This document shows positions 8,701 through 59,163 of a stretch of 64,000 nt of DNA, piece by piece (positions within the stretch are counted from its first letter, which is position 1; every line of letters starts with the position of its first letter). The DNA comes from an uncultured Gammaproteobacteria bacterium. Lineage in GTDB: Bacteria; Patescibacteriota; Patescibacteriia; UBA1558; UBA10009. A model generated the notes under the pieces. That model was not told where the DNA came from. It saw nothing but the letters and a program-made list of their open reading frames with translations, and searched no databases. Made by a program: the position numbers and the translations under genes. Where the stretch lies: contig CAZPMS010000003.1 of NCBI GenBank assembly GCA_964588165.1, positions 74,031 through 138,030 of the forward strand, given 5' to 3'.

Positions 8701-8949
8701 TTAAAGCCTAAAAGTAATTCTTCCTTTGGTTAAATCGTATGGGGTCATTTCTACCTTAACTTTATCCCCGGGAACCAGTTTAATATGGTACATTCTCATT
8801 TTTCCGGAAAGGTGGGCCAAAATTTCATGGCCGTTTTCCAGCTTTACCCTAAAACTGGCTGCCGGCAGAAGTTCTTCAACAGTACCGACCACCTCAATAA
8901 ACCCCTTTTTATTTGTTTTTGGTTGATTATCCTCCATTTTAAGTAACAA
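8701..8949 (-). CDS. infA: Translation initiation factor IF-1 (likely start at MEDNQ..., about 8937)
   Basis: [63 protein letters not shown], an S1-like IF-1 signature. Confidence 0.9.
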
Positions 8950-9150: not shown

Positions 9151-9320
9151 TAAATATTGTTCTTTACTAAATCAATTGTATTCGTAGCAGTGAAAAAAGT
9201 GCTAAATTAAAGTTCTCTTTTCGTTGCTACGGATGAGCCGTAGCGACAAAACCTTACGTTTATTCGGGTACTCCACCCTGAATGAACTCATCTGCCTACA
9301 ACGGGCAAAAGGAGTGTTGT

Positions 9321-9774: not shown

Positions 9775-11640
9775 TTATTCTAAAACAGCTTTTATTCTTC
9801 TAATGCCGGCAGATGAAGCTTGTTCTTTTTTAATTTTGAACTTACCTAAACTTCCAATTGACTCCACATGAGGACCGCCACAAATCTCTTTTGACCAGTC
9901 ACCAACTGAATATACCTTTACTTTGTTGCCATATTTATCGCCAAACAATCCAATTGCTCCTGCCTTCTTAGCCTCATCAACACTCATTTCTTCAAAACTA
10001 ACTGGTATATCTTCTTTAATTTTTGTATTGACGATTTCTTCAACTTTAGTTTTTTCCTCATCTGTTAGTTTTTCCGGATGAGAAAAATCAAACCGCAATC
10101 TTTTTTCGGTAATGTTACTCCCCTTTTGTTGAACATGATCGCCTAAAACTTCCCGCAAAGCCTGGTGTAACATATGTGTTGCTGTGTGATACCTTATAGA
10201 CATCTCGGAGGTATCAACCAAGCCTCCCTTAAACATTCCGGCTGAAGAAGTTTTAGAAAGGTCTTGATGCTTTTTCATTTCTTCACGAAATTCATTTTTA
10301 ATTCTTTCTAGCTGAGGAATTACAAAATGATAACCTCTACTTTTTAATTCTTCTATTGATAATTCATAAGGGAACCCAAATGTTTGATATAAATCAAATA
10401 GCCATTTTCCATCAATATCATTAGGGTCTGAAGGTGTGAATCCAATATGTCCTTCGACTGGACTTAAATCCTGAACAACAACTTTCTTACCTGAAATTTT
10501 TGTATTAGATTCCATAGATTTATTTAAAACCTTCAAACCTTTTACTAAAGTTTTTTCAAAACCCTCCTCTTCTTTATTTAATTCATCAATTACCTTTTGC
10601 TTATTCCTTTCCAATTCAGGATAATTTTTTTTATATAAATCCACGACAATATTTACGATTGGAGTTGTAACGTCTTCTTTTAGCGGAATACCAATTTTTT
10701 TAGCATGCCTTATAGCCCTTCTGATTAATTTTCTTAGCACATAGCCCTGATCTAAATTTGAAGGTGATATACCGTGGTCATCGGCCATAATAAAAATGGC
10801 AGCCCGTAGATGGTCCACTATAATTCTGCCGGATTCTTCGTTATAATCTTTAGCTTCTAATTTTACTTGATTAATCAGTTTTGATAAATTTTCAGTTTCG
10901 TAAATATTACTTTTATTTTGCATCACTGCCGCAACTCTTTCTAAGCCTAAACCTGTATCAACATTTTTCTTTTTGAGTGAAATATATTTTCCTGTCTTAG
11001 TTCTTTCATATTCCATAAAAACATTATTCCAAATTTCAAGCCACCTATTGTCGTCCGGATTAAAAACTTCGGGTACATCCAGCTCAGCTGGACCGGTCCA
11101 ATAAAATATTTCTGTATCCGGGCCTTGTGGTCCAACAAATTTACCACCGGCTGGCCACCAGTTTTCATCTTTATCCAATTTAGCAATTCTTTTTTCTGAT
11201 ATACCTAAGTCTTTCCATAAATTATATGACTCCTCATCAAACTGACTATCATCATCACCTTCAAAAACAGAAACGGCCAATTTATTTGAATCTAAACCCA
11301 ACCAATTTTTATCAGTTAAAAATTCATAAGACCATTTTATAGCCTCTTCTTTCCAATAATCACCAAGAGACCAGTTGCCCATCATTTCAAAAAAAGTTAA
11401 ATGCGAGTTATCACCTACTTCATCTATATCGCCGGTTCTGATACATTTTTGAAAATTGACCAACTTGTTGCCTGCTGGATGTTTTTCGCCCATTAAAAAA
11501 GGCACCAAAGGGTGCATACCGGCAGTAGTAAATAAAACTGAAGGGTCATTTTCCGGAATTAAAGAAGCAGAAGGGATTATACTGTGCTCCTTCTCCTTAA
11601 AAAAATCCAAGTATTTTTGCCTGATTTCGTTTGCTTTCAT
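9775..11640 (-). CDS. alaS: Alanine--tRNA ligase, short CPR-type (catalytic + editing domains, no C-Ala domain)
   Basis: FTTAGMHPLVPF class II aaRS motif near the N-terminus. Editing-domain HTATHMLHQALREVLGDHVQQKGS. Ends in ...CGGPHVESIGSLGKFKIKKE. The likely start is MKANEIRQKY. Confidence 0.9.
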   Translation of the reverse strand: MKANEIRQKYLDFFKEKEHSIIPSASLIPENDPSVLFTTAGMHPLVPFLMGEKHPAGNKLVNFQKCIRTGDIDEVGDNSHLTFFEMMGNWSLGDYWKEEAIKWSYEFLTDKNWLGLDSNKLAVSVFEGDDDSQFDEESYNLWKDLGISEKRIAKLDKDENWWPAGGKFVGPQGPDTEIFYWTGPAELDVPEVFNPDDNRWLEIWNNVFMEYERTKTGKYISLKKKNVDTGLGLERVAAVMQNKSNIYETENLSKLINQVKLEAKDYNEESGRIIVDHLRAAIFIMADDHGISPSNLDQGYVLRKLIRRAIRHAKKIGIPLKEDVTTPIVNIVVDLYKKNYPELERNKQKVIDELNKEEEGFEKTLVKGLKVLNKSMESNTKISGKKVVVQDLSPVEGHIGFTPSDPNDIDGKWLFDLYQTFGFPYELSIEELKSRGYHFVIPQLERIKNEFREEMKKHQDLSKTSSAGMFKGGLVDTSEMSIRYHTATHMLHQALREVLGDHVQQKGSNITEKRLRFDFSHPEKLTDEEKTKVEEIVNTKIKEDIPVSFEEMSVDEAKKAGAIGLFGDKYGNKVKVYSVGDWSKEICGGPHVESIGSLGKFKIKKEQASSAGIRRIKAVLE

Positions 11641-11932
11641 GATGTAATAATAAACCAACAAAATATTGATGTCAATTTAAATCAAAAAAAGGCGGATTTA
11701 TTAGAAAATAGATAATGTAATTAGTAATAATCTTGACAAAATTTGTAATCAAGTCTAAGATACGGCAAGTAAAAAAATGTATGTCCTTTTAAAAAATTTT
11801 AACAGTAGATATTTGGAAATTATAAACTATAAATTTTGAATATCTGCTGTTAAATTAGCAGAAAACAGAAAGTTGTCAGGCAAGAAGTCTGGCGTAAAAC
11901 AAATCTTTCTAACTCATTTGGGAGGATGTACC

Positions 11933-12658
11933 ATGAAGACCGCAACTACTATATTTATGTTATTGATCCTTCTGTTTTTCATCTCTGGGTCTATCGCTTT
12001 GGGACAAGTTTCAATTACAATTACTCCTCATGATCCGCCAGTTACAATCCCAAACGAGGGAGGCGATATCTACTACGACATATTGGTTATAAACAATACA
12101 GCAAACGAAGTTCAGGGTGATGTTTGGACCGCAATCGGTTTTCCGGGCGGTGGCTCTGACTCGCCTGTCGCACGGTGGCTAGGTTACTCAATTGATCCCT
12201 ACGACTCCCTCGGCTTTACAGACTGCCTGTTAGTTATACCCGGCAGCGCCCCAACCGGATGGTACACCTACCGCGCTAATGTTGGTCAGTTAACTGCTCC
12301 TCCCACAGTTGTAGACTATGACCAGTTTCAGTTTTTAAAACTAGGTCCTTTCGGACCTTCCGACATCTTAGGGCAGAAATTTTCGCTACCAACCGAGTTT
12401 GGCCTAGTGAACATCTTCCCCAATCCGTTCAACGCGCAAGCAACAGTTGAGATCTCGCTACCGAGTGAATCTGAGTTAACGCTGAACGTCTACAATTTAC
12501 AAGGACGTTTGGTGGCAACTTTAGCCGAGGAATCATACCCGGCCGGTGAACACCAATTCAGCTTTAATGCCAGCCGTCTGGCCAGTGGCATGTACATCAT
12601 CCACGCACAGGTTCCTGGACAGCTAAGCGCAACCCAGCGAGTTACCTTGCTGAAATAG
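11933..12658 (+). CDS. Secreted protein with signal peptide and a C-terminal T9SS/Por-secretion-type sorting domain (CTD); GC content about 50%, atypical for this window
   Basis: ATG at 11933, preceded by ggagg. Signal peptide MKTATTIFMLLILLFFISGSIALG. C-terminus LVNIFPNPFNAQATVEISLPSESELTLNVYNLQGRLVATLAEESYPAGEHQFSFNASRLASGMYIIHAQV...RVTLLK, which fits the TIGR04183-like pattern. Confidence 0.7.
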   Translation: MKTATTIFMLLILLFFISGSIALGQVSITITPHDPPVTIPNEGGDIYYDILVINNTANEVQGDVWTAIGFPGGGSDSPVARWLGYSIDPYDSLGFTDCLLVIPGSAPTGWYTYRANVGQLTAPPTVVDYDQFQFLKLGPFGPSDILGQKFSLPTEFGLVNIFPNPFNAQATVEISLPSESELTLNVYNLQGRLVATLAEESYPAGEHQFSFNASRLASGMYIIHAQVPGQLSATQRVTLLK

Positions 12659-12682
12659 TTTCAAATTCAAAAACCGCAACCA

Positions 12683-12722
12683 AAACAGCCTTCTCTAAAT
12701 CAGAGGAGGCTGTATTTTTATA
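12683..12722 (+). terminator. Rho-independent terminator after the T9SS-CTD gene
   Basis: acagccttctctaaatcagaggaggctgt hairpin followed by atttttat. Confidence 0.5.
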
Positions 12723-12750
12723 CTTCAATTAGTTTACTTAACATCTGATC

Positions 12751-13398
12751 TCATTTGCTTTCATTATGCCTATATTCCAGCGTATTTTTTAATATATAAC
12801 CATAAAAATATCTATAAATTAATAAGCTGGCTGTTAAACCACCGGCAAAATCTGCTAATAAATCATAAAGCGTATCGTAATATACTTCACCAAATTTACC
12901 CAGCATATCAGCTCCTTCAAAAATGGAATCTATGGCATATTCATAGAATTCCCAAATAAAAGAACCGAAAATTATTAAAACAAAGTTTGCCAATAAAACA
13001 AACCACAAATTAACTCTGCCAAAAAAATGTTTTTGGAAAAAAATCGGTAAAATTGGAGTAATGGAAAAAATTAAAGCCGGATTTATAAAATGGGTAAATT
13101 TATCGTAGCCGGAATATGTTGGATCATAATAACCTGCCAGTGAGCCGAGTAAATTCAAAAAACTAACTATAGCGGCAACCAACTGAATTAAATTAATATA
13201 TTCCAGGCTTACATTTTTTCTTATCCTGGGAGAACGGGAATAAATATAAAAAGGTAGCATTATTAAAACCATAGAAAATGCATAACCGGCAAATTTTAAA
13301 TAATCCCCAAAACCAAAAAACATTAGGCAAGAAATTCCTAAAAGCCAAAGTATTAATGATACTACGAAATGATGCCTGCCTCTTAATGATGTTTTCAT
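12751..13398 (-). CDS. Hypothetical polytopic membrane protein
   Basis: 215 aa, several hydrophobic helices; overlaps the mnmA stop by 4 nt (same operon). Confidence 0.45.
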   Translation of the reverse strand: MKTSLRGRHHFVVSLILWLLGISCLMFFGFGDYLKFAGYAFSMVLIMLPFYIYSRSPRIRKNVSLEYINLIQLVAAIVSFLNLLGSLAGYYDPTYSGYDKFTHFINPALIFSITPILPIFFQKHFFGRVNLWFVLLANFVLIIFGSFIWEFYEYAIDSIFEGADMLGKFGEVYYDTLYDLLADFAGGLTASLLIYRYFYGYILKNTLEYRHNESK

Positions 13399-24766: not shown

Positions 24767-25498
24767 TTATAATAATTCAATAATACTTCTGGGAACTTCA
24801 ATATCTAATTTTCTAACAATCTTAATATACTCTTTCAACTTTTTTTTATTTTCAATCCAACTTTCTGGGTGATTCAAATAATCAATATAGTATTCATATA
24901 ATTTATCGGGGATAGCGTCATTTTTATGAATACCTTCAACTAATTCTAACCAAGTGTATAAATAATGAATCTTAATACCTTCTTTCTTGAGCCAAATTCT
25001 GGCGGGATCGTTTTGAAAAAATTCAGCCATAGCAGCCCAAATTACAAGTAAATCATTAACTTTGATTTTACATTTCTTAAGATTCTCAACCATTAATTTC
25101 TTAGTTTTACCATTAGCCATTAAATCATCAACTAGCAAAGCAGTCATGCCAGGTTTATAATCCCCTTCAATATAATCCATTTTACCTGTTTTTTTAGGTT
25201 CTTTTCTAATATAACAAAAAGGTATATCTAATTCATATCCTAAGGCAGCGGCTAAGGGAATGCCAGCTGTCTCAATACCGCAAATTATATCAAAATTTAA
25301 ATCTTTAATTTTTTCGGATAGAAATTTTACTACTAACTTAAAAGCCACTGGATGAGAATATAAAACTCTGTTATCAGCTCCCATTGGAATAATACCTACC
25401 GAAACTAATCTTGGCTTGTAATTATTATGGAAACTTTCAGCGAATTTAGCACACTCTTTAAAAATTTCTTCCTTATAATTCATAAAAGCTTTTATCAA
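24767..25498 (-). CDS. Orotate phosphoribosyltransferase-like protein, paralog 1 (most canonical PRPP loop)
   Basis: YIRKEPKKTGKMDYIEG (OPRT YxRKExKxxG...IEG motif) and PRPP-binding LLVDDLMANGKT; extra about 80-aa C-terminal extension. Confidence 0.65.
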   Translation of the reverse strand: MIKAFMNYKEEIFKECAKFAESFHNNYKPRLVSVGIIPMGADNRVLYSHPVAFKLVVKFLSEKIKDLNFDIICGIETAGIPLAAALGYELDIPFCYIRKEPKKTGKMDYIEGDYKPGMTALLVDDLMANGKTKKLMVENLKKCKIKVNDLLVIWAAMAEFFQNDPARIWLKKEGIKIHYLYTWLELVEGIHKNDAIPDKLYEYYIDYLNHPESWIENKKKLKEYIKIVRKLDIEVPRSIIELL

Positions 25499-26183
25499 AA
25501 ATTAAATTCTTTTCCTTAAAGGCTAATTCCTTGAAACGTTTCCTATTTTCTAAAACACCTGTCCAGTTTGAATGGAAATTCTTAATCATTTCCAATGTTA
25601 TATCTGTAAACCCTTGGCTCCAAAATCCGGTTTTGCCATAATATTCAATAATTTCGGCCCAACTCAAAACATAGCAATAACCCAATTCTTTAAGCCACTT
25701 AATTTTTTCTTCAAAAACAGGATCGCCACCTAAAGCATTTAAAAAAACGGCCACGCCAACTACTTCGTGCCCTAACTTTTGCACCGCCTCAACAGTATTT
25801 TTTTTGCTTTTAGAACTTGAAGTTGCATCATCAATAATTAAAACCTTACTATTTTTAGGAATTTCCCCTTCCAGTTGCTTGCCAAGCTGCATATCTTTAA
25901 CCTCGCCTCGCATATAGCCCATGCCTATATTTAGTTCTTCGGCTACACCGTGGGCCCAAACAATGCCGGCAGTAGCCAAGCCAACAACAAAGTTGGGTTG
26001 CCAACCTGCACTTTTTACCTCATCAACTAAGGCCTTAATGATTAATCTTCTTTTCTTGGGATAAGAATAAAGTGCCCTAAGATCAGGATACAAAACTCCA
26101 TTTATACCAGCTCTGGTTTTAAAATCACCAACATACTGGAATGTCGGGTACAATAATTCTTTTAAAATTTTATCTTTTTCCAT
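25473..26183 (-). CDS. OPRT-like phosphoribosyltransferase-fold protein, paralog 2 (degenerate PRPP loop VLIIDDATSSSKS)
   Basis: Type I PRTase fold pattern with a non-canonical loop; overlaps paralog 1 by 26 nt. Confidence 0.55.
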   Translation of the reverse strand: MEKDKILKELLYPTFQYVGDFKTRAGINGVLYPDLRALYSYPKKRRLIIKALVDEVKSAGWQPNFVVGLATAGIVWAHGVAEELNIGMGYMRGEVKDMQLGKQLEGEIPKNSKVLIIDDATSSSKSKKNTVEAVQKLGHEVVGVAVFLNALGGDPVFEEKIKWLKELGYCYVLSWAEIIEYYGKTGFWSQGFTDITLEMIKNFHSNWTGVLENRKRFKELAFKEKNLIFDKSFYEL

Positions 26184-26185
26184 AA

Positions 26186-26965
26186 TTAAAATTTTATCCC
26201 GTCGGGCAATTCATGATACTTGCCCACTGTTTTTGAATCTTCTACCAGCATTTCCCAAGTTAATGATTCATTTTCTATAGGCCAGCCATCTTTTTTTGCA
26301 ACTTCTAAAACTTTCATGAATTTTTCTTTATTAATAGACCAGCGTTCTATATTATAATCAGCATAACCATCCCAAACTAAATTATATAACTCTTTAGAAA
26401 TATAGCCGACCTTTAAAGCATAATGGAAAAATTCTTCTATTAGCATTACTTGATGATGTCCAATATTATTTTCTTGGTACCAAGGAACTAAAGGATGGCC
26501 AGTATAATAAATAACTACCATATCGGTAACTTTTATACCTTCCTTTTCCAGATGTTCGGCAAATTTATTTTTGCCTTCGCCGGCACCGGTAGCGTCATCA
26601 ATTAAAATGGCTTTCTTCCAGGATTTATTGACCTGCCCCATTACAGCCGACTTTACTCCATAACCTTTTACTTCTTTCCTTAAGTATAGAATCGGCTTAT
26701 CCATTTCTAAAGAAACTGCTGTGGCCACCGGAAAGCCGCCTAACTCACAGCCAGCCAAAAGATCTACATCCAATTGGTTAACTATATAAGCAATCTTTTG
26801 AGCTATCAGTTTAATTGATAAAGGTTCAGAAAATAACCATCTGGTTTCCGGATAAAAAGGCACTGCTCCTAAGGCTGCAATTAAATAGCCAAACTTAAGT
26901 ATTTTTTTATCTATCATTAACTGAAAAACTTCCTCCTTGTCTTTTTGTGAAATATCAACTGCCAT
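26186..26965 (-). CDS. OPRT-like phosphoribosyltransferase-fold protein, paralog 3 (degenerate PRPP loop ILIDDATGAGEG)
   Basis: YLRKEVKGYGVKSAVMG and hydrophobic-DDA-T-G pattern; immediately downstream of the kinase-like gene. Confidence 0.55.
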   Translation of the reverse strand: MAVDISQKDKEEVFQLMIDKKILKFGYLIAALGAVPFYPETRWLFSEPLSIKLIAQKIAYIVNQLDVDLLAGCELGGFPVATAVSLEMDKPILYLRKEVKGYGVKSAVMGQVNKSWKKAILIDDATGAGEGKNKFAEHLEKEGIKVTDMVVIYYTGHPLVPWYQENNIGHHQVMLIEEFFHYALKVGYISKELYNLVWDGYADYNIERWSINKEKFMKVLEVAKKDGWPIENESLTWEMLVEDSKTVGKYHELPDGIKF

Positions 26966-28703: not shown

Positions 28704-29867
28704 TCATATTTTTCTAACAATACCTTTATTTGCATCAACCTCAACTAAATCTCCATCTTTCAAAACTTCAGTGGCTATTTTAGTTCCAACAATACAAGGG
28801 ATCTTTAATTCTCTGGAAATTACTGCGGCATGAGATAAGACACCACCGGTATTAGTTATAATGGCTCCACTCTTTCTAATGGCTGGCATATAATCAAGCG
28901 AAGTGCTAACTGTAACAATCACCTGGCCTTTTTTCATTTTTTTTATCTCATTATTAAAGGCTCTGCCCACATGATGAGGAATAATCTTAACTTTACCTTT
29001 AACATTGCCAGGAAAAGTAGTTTTGCCTCTAATTAAATTTAATTTGGGATTATTTTTAACTTTTGGCTTGGGTTTAGTAATTTTAATATTAAAATTACTT
29101 TTATTATAGACAAATTTATAATAATTTATTCTTTTATTTACTTTATTAATATCGGGTAATATATTTTTTAATAATAAATTACTTACCTCACTATATGTGC
29201 AATTTACAATTTGTAAATAATTTAATGAATTTCTTTTAGCAATTTCTCTATAAATCTTTCTGGCTTTTAAAAATGAATTTAACCATATTTTGTGCATTCG
29301 CAATCTTTCTTCTCCAATTTCTATAATTTTTAAAAATGTATTTTTGATGTCTGAATTTAAATTAAAATTTAATTTATCAAAATTTTTACTCAAAATATAT
29401 TCTATATTTTTATTTTTTGGTGCTGGGAAATCTTTTGCCAATTTTTTTAGCGCTAATTCATAATTCTCTGGTCGTATACATCTATATATTCCAAGTAAAC
29501 TAGAATAGTTATTATAAAATCTTGAATAATAATTAAATAATTCTTTATTATTTGTCTTCTTAAAATTTAATTTATCAATTTTTCGAATAAATTTAATATT
29601 CTGTTCTTTTATTTTTTTGATGTTCTTTGTAAAATCATTTAGAAGTTTTAAATTTGAATATATTTTTTCTCCCTTCTTGGCTACATACTTTTTTGTCTTA
29701 ATATCCATAAAAAAAGTAACTTTTTGATTTTCAGAAATAAAATAATGATTATTAAAACTATGGGCTAAAATTTCGCCTCTCTTTACAACATCACCAAACC
29801 AAACCATTTCAACCATGGTAAGAGGTAGATCTTCCATAGTCCATGTTTTTTCATATTTTTTTGACAT
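28704..29867 (-). CDS. Protein with C-terminal PEP-utilizing-enzyme mobile (phosphohistidine swivel) domain and uncharacterised N-terminal domain
   Basis: C-terminus GGVLSHAAVISRELKIPCIVGTKIATEVLKDGDLVEVDANKGIVRKI. No ATP-grasp and no PEP-binding TIM barrel is present. Confidence 0.65.
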   Translation of the reverse strand: MSKKYEKTWTMEDLPLTMVEMVWFGDVVKRGEILAHSFNNHYFISENQKVTFFMDIKTKKYVAKKGEKIYSNLKLLNDFTKNIKKIKEQNIKFIRKIDKLNFKKTNNKELFNYYSRFYNNYSSLLGIYRCIRPENYELALKKLAKDFPAPKNKNIEYILSKNFDKLNFNLNSDIKNTFLKIIEIGEERLRMHKIWLNSFLKARKIYREIAKRNSLNYLQIVNCTYSEVSNLLLKNILPDINKVNKRINYYKFVYNKSNFNIKITKPKPKVKNNPKLNLIRGKTTFPGNVKGKVKIIPHHVGRAFNNEIKKMKKGQVIVTVSTSLDYMPAIRKSGAIITNTGGVLSHAAVISRELKIPCIVGTKIATEVLKDGDLVEVDANKGIVRKI

Positions 29868-39440: not shown

Positions 39441-39561
39441 TTTATTTTCTTAATTATACCTTTATTAGTCCCGATATAAAATCGGGACGTCGCGAGGTTA
39501 ATATTTATATTTTCCTTACGATGCCTCGCTCCGCATCAACTTCAACTAAATCACCGTCTTT
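39441..39561. repeat. Perfect direct repeat copy 1 (about 121 bp), spanning the 3' end and 3' flank of paralog A. Copy 2 is at 40921-41041.
   Basis: Copy 1 (39441-39561) and copy 2 (40921-41041) share the identical sequence tttattttcttaattatacctttattagtcccgatataaaatcgggacgtcgcgaggttaatatttatattttccttacgatgcctcgctccgcatcaacttcaactaaatcaccgtcttt. The flank contains the hairpin tcccgat-ataaa-atcggga. Confidence 0.9.
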
Positions 39562-40920
39562 TAAAATTTTTGTTACAGCTTTAACACCGATTATTGTCGG
39601 AATCTTCAGTTCTCTGGAAATTATAGAAGCATGAGATAATACCCCGCCCTCTTCGGTTATAACTGCCTTGACTTTTTTTAATACAGGCAAATAATTTGGC
39701 TGTGTTGAACTTGCCACTAAAATATTTCCAGTTTTAACTTTTTTAAAATCATCTGGGCCGTTTACAATCACAGCCGATCCGGAAGCCTTGCCTTTATATG
39801 CTGTTTGGCCTTTTATGATTTTATTATTTATAGTATAAAATTTAATCTTTTTTGCAATTTTTTTTGATTCCTTGCCTTCATAAATGGTGGATTGGCTAAA
39901 ATTAGTAATATAAATGAAAGATTCCTTTCTTCTCTTTAGTAAACTTTGATCCACTTTTTTATTTTCTTCTAATAAGCTTATTACCTCAAAGACTGTAAAA
40001 TTAAAAATTTCTTTATAATTTTTTATATTGATTCTCTTAGATATTTCCTTCAATAAATTCATTAAATAAATTCCCGAACGATAAAACTCCTCGCTGCGAA
40101 AACTTCTAAAATAAATGGATTCATTAATAGTTTTTATTAAATAGATTAAAGATTTTTTATTTTTGTATTTACCCAATATTTTATTAAATCTTTCTTTTTG
40201 CTTATTTTTCTCATTTTGCGCTTTGGAAAGACTTTTTTCAGGATCTAATTTAGCTTGTCTTTTTATTCTATTTAAATAATAGCTCCCATTATAATAATCG
40301 CCGTAGTAACCAGTGTCTTTAAGCCAAGAATAATTAAAAATATGCTTTTCTAAATCTTTCTCAATATTTTGATTATTCTTGAATTTAATAGAGATTTTTA
40401 ATAATGAAATTTTTTCATCTAATTCACGAGAATTTTTTACTGGTGACAAAATCGTGCTTAATTCATCGTTATTAACCTGCTTAATTATCTCGTCAGTTAT
40501 TTTATCCTCAACATAAAGAGGTAATAATGCGTAAGCGGCAAAATTTGTCATCCTACTGATAAAATCCTTAATTAGTCTTGATAGTTGTTTGTTAGAATAA
40601 CTACTATAATTTTTAATTTTATAAACTCCCTTTAAAAAAATAATTAATTGTTTATGCTCTTTATAACAATGTGATAGTTGCTGATAAAGGAAATTTGGAC
40701 TTTTTTTTAAATAATTCCATAATCTATTTTGCATTTCTTGCCAATCTTTTTTAGAAAAAACTACCTTATTATCAATCGCCCCAACATGCCTCATCCAGTA
40801 TTTAATATTTTCCATTTTTACTGATTGAATGGCAAAACTTCTAAAAACAACATGGACATACCATAAGCTCCTTTGTCTTGTATGTACATAATGCCAGTTT
40901 ATTTTAGACAGATCAATCAT
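39505..40920 (-). CDS. PEP-utilizing-enzyme swivel-domain protein (471 aa), tandem paralog A
   Basis: C-terminus ...EGGVLSHASIISRELKIPTIIGVKAVTKILKDGDLVEVDAERGIVRKI. The last 19 codons and the 64-bp 3' flank are identical to paralog B. Confidence 0.65.
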   Translation of the reverse strand: MIDLSKINWHYVHTRQRSLWYVHVVFRSFAIQSVKMENIKYWMRHVGAIDNKVVFSKKDWQEMQNRLWNYLKKSPNFLYQQLSHCYKEHKQLIIFLKGVYKIKNYSSYSNKQLSRLIKDFISRMTNFAAYALLPLYVEDKITDEIIKQVNNDELSTILSPVKNSRELDEKISLLKISIKFKNNQNIEKDLEKHIFNYSWLKDTGYYGDYYNGSYYLNRIKRQAKLDPEKSLSKAQNEKNKQKERFNKILGKYKNKKSLIYLIKTINESIYFRSFRSEEFYRSGIYLMNLLKEISKRINIKNYKEIFNFTVFEVISLLEENKKVDQSLLKRRKESFIYITNFSQSTIYEGKESKKIAKKIKFYTINNKIIKGQTAYKGKASGSAVIVNGPDDFKKVKTGNILVASSTQPNYLPVLKKVKAVITEEGGVLSHASIISRELKIPTIIGVKAVTKILKDGDLVEVDAERGIVRKI

Positions 40921-41041
40921 TTTATTTTCTTAATTATACCTTTATTAGTCCCGATATAAAATCGGGACGTCGCGAGGTTAATATTTATATTTTCCTTACG
41001 ATGCCTCGCTCCGCATCAACTTCAACTAAATCACCGTCTTT
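40921..41041. repeat. Perfect direct repeat copy 2 (see 39441-39561)
   Basis: Identical to 39441-39561 on direct reading of both lines. Confidence 0.9.
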
Positions 41042-42436
41042 GAAAACTTTGGTGGCAACTAAAGTATTTACAACACAAGGCTTGCCTAATTCTCTGGAAA
41101 CTATAGCAGCATGGCAAGTAATGCCACCAACTTCCGTAACCACAGCCACTGATTTTTTCATAGCGGTAACAAAATCAACAGATGTAGAGGGAACCACTAA
41201 CACTTCGCCATCTTTCATTTTAGATAATTCAGAGATGCTGCTTATTACTCTGGCCTTGCCTTTAGCTTTACCAGGAGAAGCACCTAAGCCGCAAAGTTCT
41301 TTTTTATTACCTAATGATACTTTTGGCTTATCTTTTAAACATTCTTGATTAATCTTAGAGTGCAAATTTTTAGCCTGCTTGCCGGTGATTATCTTTTGTT
41401 TGTCTAAATTTATAACTTGAACAGCAAACGACTGCCTTTCTTTAATAATTTTTTTAAAATTACTATTACTGATTTTACCTACAAGGCCTTTCCTGATTTC
41501 CTGGGGTGTTAAGAATTTAAGCTCACTAAAAGTAACTTTAAATTCCTCAGCGATTCTTTCATAAATAGGCTTGGCTTTATGAACAATATAACTGGTATGC
41601 AAATCCACTCTGGTTCTGATTAAAGTAAAATATCTTAACATATTAATATCTTTAAGTAATCTACCTGAAAGGCTAAGCTCTTTTATGGTTTTTTTATTTA
41701 ATAACTTTGTCTTATTTGAATAATTTTTTATGTCAGACATCCTTTTTTTAATATCTTTAGCCTTTAGTTCTTGGTTTAGTCTAAACATTAGATCTTCCAT
41801 TTCCCACGGTTCATTGTCATACCATACAGGAATCCATTCAAATTTCTTAAGATGTTTTTTGAATATTGGTTTTATATCATCAATTAAGCCACCTTTAAAC
41901 TTGCTGACAATTTCTAAAAAATTAAGCTCTTCTTTTTGCGTTTCTAAAAATTCCCAAGGCGTGGTTACAGCAATCAATTTGTTAGTAAACTGCTCTTCCT
42001 TTCTTTGTTTCTTTAAAATATCTTTAAACTTTTTACTAATTCTTTCTAAATATATTTCATCAATGGCATGATTAATATCACCAATTGGTTCAGCTAAAAA
42101 CAATAGGTTCCAATATTTGTTAAATGATTTTAAAAGTTTTGCCCGATTAATATTTTTGATATCGGCTAAATTATTATTAAGAAATTTATTAAGATTTCTA
42201 AAATTCTTTTCATGATTTTGGCCGTATCTTTTGATATAATATGGATCTTTATCAATTCTAGTCCACCAAATTTTATGCATCCTCTTATAATCAGAAGTAT
42301 AAGTATAATAATGAGCCAATAAATCCTTATGTACTCTAATTACTCTCTTAAAAACCACTTCTCGCCTGTCCCAATAATAAAGGCTGTAATGAAGTATGCT
42401 GATAGACCATGATCCAAACTTATGATATTTTGACAT
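40985..42436 (-). CDS. PEP-utilizing-enzyme swivel-domain protein (483 aa), tandem paralog B
   Basis: C-terminus ...GGITCHAAIVSRELGKPCVVNTLVATKVFKDGDLVEVDAERGIVRKI. Confidence 0.65.
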   Translation of the reverse strand: MSKYHKFGSWSISILHYSLYYWDRREVVFKRVIRVHKDLLAHYYTYTSDYKRMHKIWWTRIDKDPYYIKRYGQNHEKNFRNLNKFLNNNLADIKNINRAKLLKSFNKYWNLLFLAEPIGDINHAIDEIYLERISKKFKDILKKQRKEEQFTNKLIAVTTPWEFLETQKEELNFLEIVSKFKGGLIDDIKPIFKKHLKKFEWIPVWYDNEPWEMEDLMFRLNQELKAKDIKKRMSDIKNYSNKTKLLNKKTIKELSLSGRLLKDINMLRYFTLIRTRVDLHTSYIVHKAKPIYERIAEEFKVTFSELKFLTPQEIRKGLVGKISNSNFKKIIKERQSFAVQVINLDKQKIITGKQAKNLHSKINQECLKDKPKVSLGNKKELCGLGASPGKAKGKARVISSISELSKMKDGEVLVVPSTSVDFVTAMKKSVAVVTEVGGITCHAAIVSRELGKPCVVNTLVATKVFKDGDLVEVDAERGIVRKI

Positions 42437-58107: not shown

Positions 58108-59163
58108 TTATTTTATCTGTTTTACGCCAAGATATAAAATATTAGGATTAATAGGATCTAAAAATATATATTTAGCTGCCCTGGATGAAGGCAATGACCT
58201 AGTAATCCAGTTTTCTCCATTATCTAAAGATCTATACAAGGTTGAAGAAATGCCATAATAAATTTCCTTATCATCTTGGGGGTTTATGGCTAAAGAATAA
58301 ATAGTAGAAGTACTGGGAGGGGTTAATAGTTTAATATCCTGCCAGCTGGCTCCACCATCTCTGCTTCTGAGTAATCCATATTGAGAAGCATAAAGTAGTC
58401 CATCATCAACTGTTGGATCTAAAATGATATTCCTATATGTCATAACGTTTTTCTTTTCCTTTTTTATTTCATCCGAAATAATTTGGTTCCAGCTTGCTCC
58501 AGCATCGGTAGTTTTAAAAATACCTTTACTATTGGTAGCTACATAAATTATCCTAGTATCAGTATTATTTACTAAAACCTTAGTTACTCTGGAATCAAAA
58601 AACTTAACGGCATGCCAGGAAAAGCCGCCATCTTCACTCTTAAATAAACCATATCCGGAGGTTCCGGCATATATTATATTAGTGTTATACGAATCAACAG
58701 CCAATGAAGTAATTTGATTCTTAGGATCCTTTCTAGTTTCTATTAATTGATAAGTCCAGTGCCGGTTACAATCAGTGCTTTTATAAACTCTGTTTCCAAT
58801 GGCTGCATAAATAACACAGCGTTCTTGAGGGCTTACTTTTATATCATTAATTCTGCCCAAGCCAGTTAAGGCTTGATGCCAGCCAATGCCGCCATCGTAA
58901 GTGTAATACATGCCTTGCTCCTGGGTGCCAATATAAATGGCCTGGGTATCTGTTGGATCCATGGTCATACTGGTTAAATCCACTGTACTAAAGGTTTTCT
59001 TTAAATCTCCAACGCGATAAACCAAGGTAATTTGTTCCCAGTTGTCACCATAATCTGCTGTTTTATAAACTCCGCCATCTACACCTCCTCTGGTTTTAAA
59101 GCTAATGGAACAGCCTGTTAAAACTAAAATACCAAGAAGCGGGATAATAAAAAGTTTTTTCAT
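58108..59163 (-). CDS. Lipoprotein with BNR/Asp-box repeats (sortilin/Ycf48-like beta-propeller)
   Basis: Lipobox LVLTGC; repeated SxDxGxxW motifs (YDGGIGW, SEDGGFSWH, TDAGASWN, RDGGASWQ, LDNGENW). Confidence 0.6.
   Translation of the reverse strand: MKKLFIIPLLGILVLTGCSISFKTRGGVDGGVYKTADYGDNWEQITLVYRVGDLKKTFSTVDLTSMTMDPTDTQAIYIGTQEQGMYYTYDGGIGWHQALTGLGRINDIKVSPQERCVIYAAIGNRVYKSTDCNRHWTYQLIETRKDPKNQITSLAVDSYNTNIIYAGTSGYGLFKSEDGGFSWHAVKFFDSRVTKVLVNNTDTRIIYVATNSKGIFKTTDAGASWNQIISDEIKKEKKNVMTYRNIILDPTVDDGLLYASQYGLLRSRDGGASWQDIKLLTPPSTSTIYSLAINPQDDKEIYYGISSTLYRSLDNGENWITRSLPSSRAAKYIFLDPINPNILYLGVKQIK

Follow-up and report, generated by a model that had tools for sequence, protein, structure and literature searches.

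The system for type IX secretion (T9SS) is typical of Bacteroidetes and possible in Chlorobi, Fibrobacteres and Ignavibacteriae (PMC5837995). Its type-A cargo proteins combine a Sec signal peptide with a C-terminal sorting domain (CTD; PF18962/TIGR04183), a β-sandwich tail of ~80 aa that occupies the extreme C-terminus and carries PNPFN, G(R/Q)xV, SG(I/M)Y and LLK motifs. The same features, the signal peptide being putative, are found in the product of a gene on the + strand at 11933–12658 of a 64,000-nt stretch of DNA, referred to below as the window (assembly GCA_964588165.1, contig CAZPMS010000003.1, positions 74,031–138,030). In contrast to known type-A cargo genes, this gene (hereafter the CTD gene, encoding the CTD protein) lies in a genome assigned to the Patescibacteria; neither translocon nor sortase was found in the window, and none is expected in such a genome. 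Patescibacteria are not known to possess an outer membrane or a T9SS (SprA, PorV or PorU). The CTD protein probably shares the domain of T9SS cargo but not its mechanism of secretion. The reading that we favor, with a probability of about 0.75, is that a secreted cargo gene from the Fibrobacteres–Chlorobi–Bacteroidetes (FCB) group was inserted horizontally into a patescibacterial chromosome and is fixed in the population, with the mode of action proposed below.

The closest relatives of the CTD protein belong to a two-domain module, an RbmA-like domain followed by a CTD, that is found in Zixibacteria, Calditrichota and unclassified FCB bacteria (P0005, P0006, P0012, P0153 and P0181). The similarity extends over aa 25–241 at 33–43% identity and includes the invariant residues of the family. 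The relatives are mostly 400–1900 aa long, contain β-helix, LVIVD, M10 peptidase or plastocyanin domains and are encoded in arrays of CTD genes, whereas the CTD protein stands alone. RbmA of Vibrio cholerae, a biofilm matrix scaffolding protein (PDB: 4kkp, 4be6), is similar in that both of its fibronectin type III (FnIII) domains are matched by the profile of the N-terminal domain, and in that both are small secreted two-sandwich proteins with no enzymatic domain. However, the CTD protein has a single RbmA-like domain rather than a tandem pair, and its second sandwich is the T9SS tail. At the level of the locus, a compositional outlier, an empty site in relatives and flanking direct repeats are shared with horizontally acquired genomic islets. 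Unlike these islets, the insert contains no integrase, transposase, tRNA target or near-identical donor sequence; the duplicated 24 nt fall at the start of alaS, which is essential, and alaS appears to receive a new promoter from the cassette.

The CTD gene is an open reading frame (ORF) for 241 aa, with an ATG at 11933, a stop codon at 12656–12658 and a Shine-Dalgarno sequence, GGGAGGA, at 11920–11926. The gene callers of public assemblies place the start either at this ATG or at an internal Met (233 aa); a TTG further upstream, at 11873, is not accompanied by a ribosome-binding site. The original prediction, made by inspection of the sequence, had put the GC content of the gene at ~50% against ~33% for its neighbors, and this contrast was borne out: the GC content of the coding sequence is 0.483 versus a window mean of 0.343, 100-nt windows within 12050–12650 reach 0.47–0.57, and the 12001–12500 bin is the GC maximum among all 128 500-nt bins of the window. 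At third codon positions (GC3), the value is 0.496, the highest of 61 ORFs (z 3.8), the remaining 60 having 0.289 ± 0.054. The mean log-probability of its codons under the codon usage of the window is the lowest among the ORFs (z −4.2), and its tetranucleotide distance is greater than that of every other 726-nt window. Both comparisons had been suggested by the original prediction, and in composition the CTD gene is the strongest outlier of the 61 ORFs. The second largest tetranucleotide outlier lies at 29001–29500, where the window is most AT-rich (GC 0.21). Within the CTD gene, the first 120 nt, which encode the signal-peptide region, have a host-like GC content of 0.38. The non-coding parts of the insert are AT-rich, and the leader, at 0.26, is likewise host-like.

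The insert (~1.1 kb; 11645–12744) separates two native genes of the − strand and carries the CTD gene on the opposite strand. Downstream of the insertion lies alaS (9775–11640, −), which encodes alanyl-tRNA synthetase (AlaRS, 621 aa; Pfam tRNA-synt_2c and tRNA_SAD), and upstream lies a gene for a DUF2238 membrane protein (12751–13398, −; Pfam PF09997). The CTD gene is the only ORF of the insert, and no integrase or transposase was found in it. A repeat search revealed that the insert is bordered by 24-nt direct repeats that are identical at 21/24 positions (88%) and spaced by 1124 nt. Copy B (11621–11644) comprises the first 20 nt of alaS together with the 4 nt upstream of its ATG, and copy A (12745–12768), also read directly from the sequence, gives DUF2238 its final codons and its TGA stop. 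Allowing ≤3 mismatches, a 21-mer of the repeat occurs at these two sites only (chance expectation 0.00). Both copies encode MKANEIR in the alaS frame, and their three differences all fall at third codon positions. Because the repeat copies correspond to the start of alaS, this start appears to have been duplicated at insertion, leaving both neighboring genes with usable ends. We infer that a single crossover of a circular intermediate with a short homologous stretch would fit both the repeat and its synonymous differences.

The empty state of this site is observed in the two nearest related loci, a Patescibacteria metagenome-assembled genome (MAG; L005) and a metagenome contig (L086). Both keep the co-directional row mnmA-DUF2238-alaS-infA in the same order and on the same strand, and the distance from the DUF2238 stop to the alaS ATG is 15 nt in L005 and 3 nt in L086. 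Identity between these loci and the window is 63–65% for AlaRS, 63–76% for MnmA and 58–65% for DUF2238 (58% in L005 and 65% in L086), and the start of AlaRS reads MKANEIRQKY in the window versus MKLNEIRQKY in L086. When metagenomes were scanned with DUF2238, L086 was the one related locus to come back; no closer relatives and no source contigs were recovered by it.

Two observations concern alaS itself. A second opposite-strand ORFan, encoding 130–143 aa with no Pfam match, is located at 9282/9321–9713 (+) between infA (8701–8937, −) and the alaS stop, where the infA-alaS gap is only 167 nt in L005 and 194 nt in L086; alaS is thus bracketed by two lineage-specific insertions. The GC content of this ORFan is host-like, and no flanking repeats were found around it. 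Typical bacterial AlaRS has ~870 aa; with 621 aa in the window and 582–595 aa in L086 and L005, the enzyme has the catalytic and editing (tRNA_SAD) domains but apparently not the C-terminal C-Ala domain.

Taken together, the compositional outlier, the empty sites in the two nearest relatives and the target duplication identify the CTD gene, as judged from sequence, as a horizontal acquisition. The original prediction of a recent horizontal acquisition is thereby confirmed as to horizontal transfer, whereas "recent" holds only in the sense of an unameliorated gene. A native, vertically inherited gene of odd composition that was lost in the relatives would agree with the host-like GC content of the leader and the signal-peptide region, and the empty-site comparison rests on two related loci. 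We nevertheless consider vertical inheritance very improbable: no other of the 61 ORFs is as extreme in GC3 and codon usage, the 3–15 nt junction is tight in both relatives and contains no remnant, and a duplicated alaS start is a mark of insertion, not of deletion. Moreover, hidden Markov models (HMMs) built locally for the tail and the N-terminal domain detected no such ORF in ~0.9 Mb of loci surrounding alaS, mostly from Patescibacteria, and no second copy in the window, and the named homologues are all from the FCB group.

The sharp GC jump at the CTD gene is also what would be expected if an FCB-group fragment had been mis-joined into a CPR (candidate phyla radiation, that is, Patescibacteria) contig, and the original prediction had raised contamination or chimerism of the assembly. 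We found the exact CTD protein on 12 contigs and the exact protein of its DUF2238 neighbor on 13. The sources are five samples of JGI, five assemblies of ENA (series SUTE22-1 and SCRA20-1) and two SRA runs assembled by Logan. All 13 contigs are 99.8–100% identical to the window over their whole length, including the insert junction or junctions that they reach. Every junction-reaching contig among the 13 is filled, and no empty-site variant was found in the same population. Some of the assemblies may share reads; three pipelines and ~10 samples are concordant. The insertion is fixed and essentially invariant in all samples.

Two short contigs of the same organism do end within the 3′ end or tail of the insert, L098 at 12660 and L101 at 12649, as a mis-join might predict. 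Both are identical to the window up to their breaks, and assemblers may stumble at the compositional boundary. The agreement among 13 contigs, three assembly sources and ~10 samples at the junctions reached speaks against a chimera, as does the small size of the foreign part (~0.7 kb, with CPR sequence on both sides). In addition, the 24-nt duplication of the alaS start at the junctions would not be created by mis-assembly, and the promoters and leader of the insert have a host-like AT content. An assembly artifact is, in our judgment, extremely improbable, and this part of the original prediction was not upheld.

The assignment of the surrounding genome to the Patescibacteria rests on AlaRS matches and synteny. 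Among contigs representing one genome per species, the best matches of AlaRS are Patescibacteria MAGs at 51–65% identity, the best one at 65% and the following ones, at 51–57%, from Paceibacterota, Parcubacteria, Falkowbacteria, Moranbacteria and Magasanikbacteria. The row mnmA-DUF2238-alaS-infA-rpsM is common to the window, L005 and L086, and no 16S rRNA gene is present within the window. These data agree with the CPR-like genome recognized in the original prediction. The genes annotated with Pfam between 1957 and 62234 are housekeeping genes only; their families include ribosomal proteins, RpoA, LepA, MurJ, FtsEX, MreBC and PBP2, as well as glycosyltransferases, ComF-like phosphoribosyltransferases, RecJ and RRF. 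No families of T9SS or outer-membrane biogenesis were found among these annotated genes, and this gene content fits a cell without an outer membrane. No T9SS machinery had been expected in Patescibacteria by the original prediction, and none appears among the Pfam-annotated genes of the window; for the rest of the genome, this expectation draws on general knowledge.

We then turn to the protein, which had been predicted to be a secreted protein of 241 aa ending in a textbook T9SS sorting domain; the ORF lies at exactly these coordinates, and both features are supported. A putative Sec signal peptide, aa 1–24 (MKTATTIFMLLILLFFISGSIALG; 11933–12004, +), was read from the sequence: it has K2, a hydrophobic core at aa 7–21 and A-L-G before Q25, and aa 3–17 form a helix in the AlphaFold2 (AF2) model. 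Signal peptidase is predicted to cut after ALG, exposing Gln25. The signal peptide is followed by an N-terminal β-sandwich of RbmA-like FnIII/immunoglobulin (Ig) fold (aa 26–136; 12008–12340, +), which was delineated with AF2, Foldseek and the family profile, and by a linker of low confidence (aa 137–160; 12341–12412, +), which was defined by the AF2 confidence score (pLDDT) and an alignment gap. The T9SS type-A CTD, supported by PF18962, TIGR04183 and AF2, comprises aa 161–241 and, with the stop codon, 12413–12658 (+).

Both HMMs for the sorting domain score above their curated cut-offs on the C-terminal 81 aa: PF18962 (Por_Secre_tail) with an E-value of 2.4e-11 and 44.2 bits (cut-off 27), and TIGR04183 with 5.6e-10 and 39.1 bits (cut-off 23). 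The match spans aa 161–237 of 241 and the protein terminates in ...RVTLLK, which places the domain at the extreme C-terminus. The FlgD Ig-like fold, which is related to the sorting domain, gave a sub-threshold match. The AF2 model, built with an alignment of 47 homologues, has a mean pLDDT of 85.3, with values mostly >90 in the β-sandwich at aa 26–136. The CTD forms a second sandwich (aa 169–239) of six predicted strands with pLDDT 90–97. Between the two, a low-confidence stretch covers aa 141–165, with pLDDT <50 at aa 141–153 and 158–165. The linker is ~25 aa shorter than in the homologues, which contain a W..GW stretch where the CTD protein has a gap in the alignment. The residues that are invariant in the family (G43, W65, P71, G109, Y111, K136 and PNPFN) are all kept.

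When the model was compared to the PDB with Foldseek, the seven best matches were chains of V. cholerae RbmA (E 1.7e-9 to 4.7e-8), followed by other tandem Ig/FnIII proteins, such as transglutaminase C-terminal barrels, Vpr and C5a peptidase. The TM-scores for RbmA are low, 0.29–0.36, because the AF2 model leaves the placement of the two domains relative to each other arbitrary. A sequence profile of the family searched against PDB sequences also matched RbmA (E 6.6e-10), with independent E-values of 3.4e-5 for domain 2 and 0.22 for domain 1, and it matched the solved Por sorting domain 8glj_D (E 0.003). The CTD protein has no catalytic domain. Apart from the cleavable signal peptide, its sequence shows no transmembrane segment, nor is there a sortase motif.

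To trace the relatives of the CTD protein, a HMMER scan covered 1.84 billion cluster representatives (~15 billion proteins). It matched 170,817 proteins at ≤1e-3, mostly through the ubiquitous tail, 10,684 at ≤1e-10 and 11 at ≤1e-30. The best non-self identity is only 33–43%, and no donor closer than 43% was found among the ~15 billion proteins. We fetched 152 proteins, namely the listed matches plus P0002 and P0003, and 144 of these align over aa 25–241 or nearly so. The aligned region is mostly the C-terminal part of a longer protein (median length 602 aa, maximum 1978 aa); about a dozen relatives of 216–270 aa stand alone like the CTD protein. Given this homology over the whole module, the gene would have been transferred as a complete domain-plus-tail unit, not assembled within the CPR. 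Several close paralogues are encoded on one 4.5-Mb contig, and at one locus (L093, 8119–16363, GC 0.52), in a genome with close homologues, five consecutive genes end in Por_Secre_tail, two of which, P0155 and P0224, are relatives of the CTD protein. As read from such loci, the module appears to be amplified in tandem arrays in genomes like that of L093. The three homologue-carrying loci that we examined have a GC content of 0.47–0.65. Vectors were considered as well: no phage match to the CTD protein was found, and the plasmid matches, from Salinibacter and Rhodothermus, cover the tail only, so a phage or plasmid vector was rejected.

The named full-length relatives are four from Candidatus Zixiibacteriota and one from Calditrichota, the rest being T9SS type-A proteins of unclassified "bacterium" entries; the assignment of the donor rests on about six named sequences, and most of the closest matches carry no taxon name. 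These sequences indicate that the donor was probably an FCB-group diderm with a T9SS, Calditrichota- or Zixibacteria-like, from a lineage that is itself unsampled, and they point to a donor outside Bacteroidota in the strict sense. The original prediction, which called the gene Bacteroidota-type, was therefore too narrow, with Zixiibacteriota and Calditrichota among the named relatives and CTD-only plasmid matches in Salinibacter and Rhodothermus; all four taxa belong to the FCB group but fall outside Bacteroidota in the strict sense. A donor within Bacteroidota proper could be argued from the fact that the T9SS is best known from that phylum and from the predicted mature N-terminus, Gln, which conforms to the "Q-rule" of Bacteroidetes (PMC5837995). 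It is unlikely, however, given that none of the named full-length relatives comes from Bacteroidota, as against four from Zixiibacteriota and one from Calditrichota, and that the plasmid-borne tails are those of Salinibacter and Rhodothermus. An [AGS]Q motif at aa 15–40 was present in 87/230 (38%) of the Met-initiated proteins fetched, by a heuristic for cleavage sites that is crude and unreliable. Among the papers covered by our literature search, none links T9SS tails with CPR/Patescibacteria and none links Zixibacteria with type IX secretion.

The insert carries expression signals for both strands. Facing alaS, a promoter search found a promoter-like site within the insert (TTGACA-17-TATTAT, 11 of 12 positions; 11647–11675, −), the −10 box of which ends 6 nt before the alaS ATG, with no Shine-Dalgarno sequence. 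The alaS mRNA is plausibly leaderless and driven by this outward promoter of the cassette, and the arrangement suggests that the leaderless mRNA was created by the insertion. For the CTD gene, a divergent promoter-like site (TTGACA-17-TAAGAT, 10 of 12; 11733–11761, +) is followed by an AT-rich leader of ~170 nt (11762–11932, +), for which RNA folding and an inverted-repeat search predict strong structure. The predicted fold has a free energy of −48.8 kcal/mol (z −6.3), and none of 200 shuffled sequences was as stable. In its core lies a 57-nt inverted repeat (11798–11854) with 27-nt arms that are 81% complementary, unique in the window, and in its outer helix 11779–11793 is predicted to pair with the Shine-Dalgarno sequence and the start codon, an upstream UCCUUU stretch taking part in this pairing. 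The modeled fold points to repressed or conditional translation of the CTD gene.

No Rfam family was identified for the leader, the only match being a chance miRNA hairpin (E 0.39), and no exact match of the inverted repeat was found in IMG/VR. The 57-nt repeat was also considered as an integron attC site: GTTAAAT in its 3′ arm fits GTTRRRY and resembles an attC R′ box, but the 5′ arm deviates at one base. In AT-rich DNA, 7-mers of this kind would turn up by chance, and this reading is not claimed. Downstream of the CTD gene, a terminator search found a hairpin resembling an intrinsic terminator (12685–12713, +), with a 12-bp stem that includes 6 GC pairs, followed by ATTTTTAT. It is located between the convergent CTD and DUF2238 genes and has T-rich tails on both strands, and it may act as a bidirectional terminator. 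Whereas the relatives keep alaS in tight coupling with DUF2238, this link is broken in the window by the terminator and the opposite-strand gene.

The favored scenario, a population-fixed horizontal insertion, can be outlined as follows. A ~1.1-kb cassette would have been inserted between DUF2238 and alaS in the conserved co-directional row mnmA-DUF2238-alaS-infA. Its cargo would be a complete gene from an FCB-group diderm with type IX secretion, encoding a signal peptide, an RbmA-like domain, a short disordered linker and a sorting domain. It would represent, as a protein by itself, the two-domain module with which hundreds of larger T9SS cargo proteins terminate. The insertion would have cut alaS off from the upstream genes, and the promoter at the edge of the cassette would restore its expression as a leaderless mRNA, while the long leader would mask the ribosome-binding site of the CTD gene and keep its translation low or conditional. 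The CTD protein would be exported by Sec, with the signal peptide cut after ALG. As neither an outer membrane nor SprA, PorV or PorU is expected in Patescibacteria, the sorting domain would be inert as a secretion signal; it would neither direct secretion nor be removed, remaining as a second Ig-like domain. The resulting protein, small, extracellular and built of two sandwiches, would have no catalytic domain, and by analogy to RbmA its likeliest activity is binding of a surface glycan or matrix component.

The main rival to this proposal accepts the transfer and holds that the gene is dead cargo, unexpressed or useless, kept because it is recent or because alaS needs the promoter of the cassette. 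We regard this as possible, although doubtful. No T9SS that could use the tail was found in the window, the predicted leader helix, which is very stable, would hide the Shine-Dalgarno sequence and the ATG, and the linker is shorter than in the homologues; the outward alaS promoter would, moreover, select for the cassette whatever its cargo. On the other hand, the ORF is intact, all family-invariant residues are kept and the fold is predicted with confidence, the gene comes with a promoter-like site, a Shine-Dalgarno sequence and a terminator, and it is fixed and essentially invariant in all samples.

The original prediction had raised an interaction with a Bacteroidota host, and any link to a host organism is speculative; a more specific function would follow if the CTD protein mimicked the proteins of a host. 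Patescibacteria are generally episymbionts, and an episymbiont could secrete a host-type T9SS cargo protein, the tail of which would dock on the PorV/PorU attachment complex at the surface of a Calditrichota- or Zixibacteria-like host for recognition or attachment. The tail is in a good state of preservation and its fold is predicted with confidence, one ecological group of diderms is where the module typically occurs, and the general episymbiotic lifestyle of Patescibacteria is compatible with this idea. Still, with no extra transmembrane segment and no sortase motif, nothing evident would hold the protein to the CPR cell, and neutral acquisition would account for a single gene just as well, so we find mimicry quite improbable. 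If it were true, the gene would name the host lineage and reveal an attachment mechanism, and the structured leader would mean conditional expression.

Several points weigh against the horizontal insertion and functional export that we favor. There is no close donor, the best identity being 33–43%, and the direction and date of the transfer for this reason rest on composition and empty sites only. The relatives with empty sites are themselves distant (63–65% identity in AlaRS), so that they date the insertion only loosely. Neither an integrase nor a transposase is encoded in the insert, and the duplication, which at 24 nt is long for one made by a transposase, matches no standard mechanism of transposition. 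The AT-rich leader and signal-peptide region are left unexplained by a one-step transfer from a donor with 50% GC; unconstrained sequence may have ameliorated faster, the gene may have come by way of an AT-rich intermediate carrier, or the 5′ end may have been remodeled later. The search for the T9SS spans 64 kb, and the absence of an outer membrane is general knowledge of Patescibacteria. Lastly, all that is said of the function is prediction, and with its ribosome-binding site masked as the fold predicts, the gene could be silent.

A few other features of the window are recorded here. Three consecutive genes with Pribosyltran matches (ComF-like) are found at 24767–26965 (−); they are possibly part of a DNA-uptake apparatus and, in that case, relevant to the entry of foreign DNA. 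Three proteins encoded at 28704–29867, 39505–40920 and 40985–42436 (−) have PEP-utilizers, a mobile phosphohistidine domain, as their sole Pfam match, and two of the three genes are adjacent, beside a cluster of GT4 glycosyltransferases and a gene for a DUF4012 protein (866 aa). A 351-aa protein with Sortilin-Vps10 and BNR repeat matches (E 5e-23) is encoded at 58108–59163 (−) between a holB-like gene and frr, an unusual location for a β-propeller.

In summary, the CTD gene represents a known domain family and an ordinary event, the horizontal transfer of a single gene, in an unusual recipient and with unusually clean breakpoints; as a single-gene transfer the function of which is only inferred, it is of modest importance. 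It also calls for caution in annotation: a Por_Secre_tail match in a genome does not imply that a type IX secretion system is present there. The locus illustrates how an insertion can be tolerated in a packed row of essential genes, with the target duplicated, the ends of both neighbors kept and, as it appears, a promoter for alaS supplied by the cassette. For most Patescibacteria the hosts have yet to be named, and sequence offers few hints as to their partners, foreign genes being among them. A gene for diderm-specific secretion cargo in a CPR genome would indicate contact with, or DNA uptake from, FCB-group bacteria that are Calditrichota- or Zixibacteria-like and not Bacteroidota.

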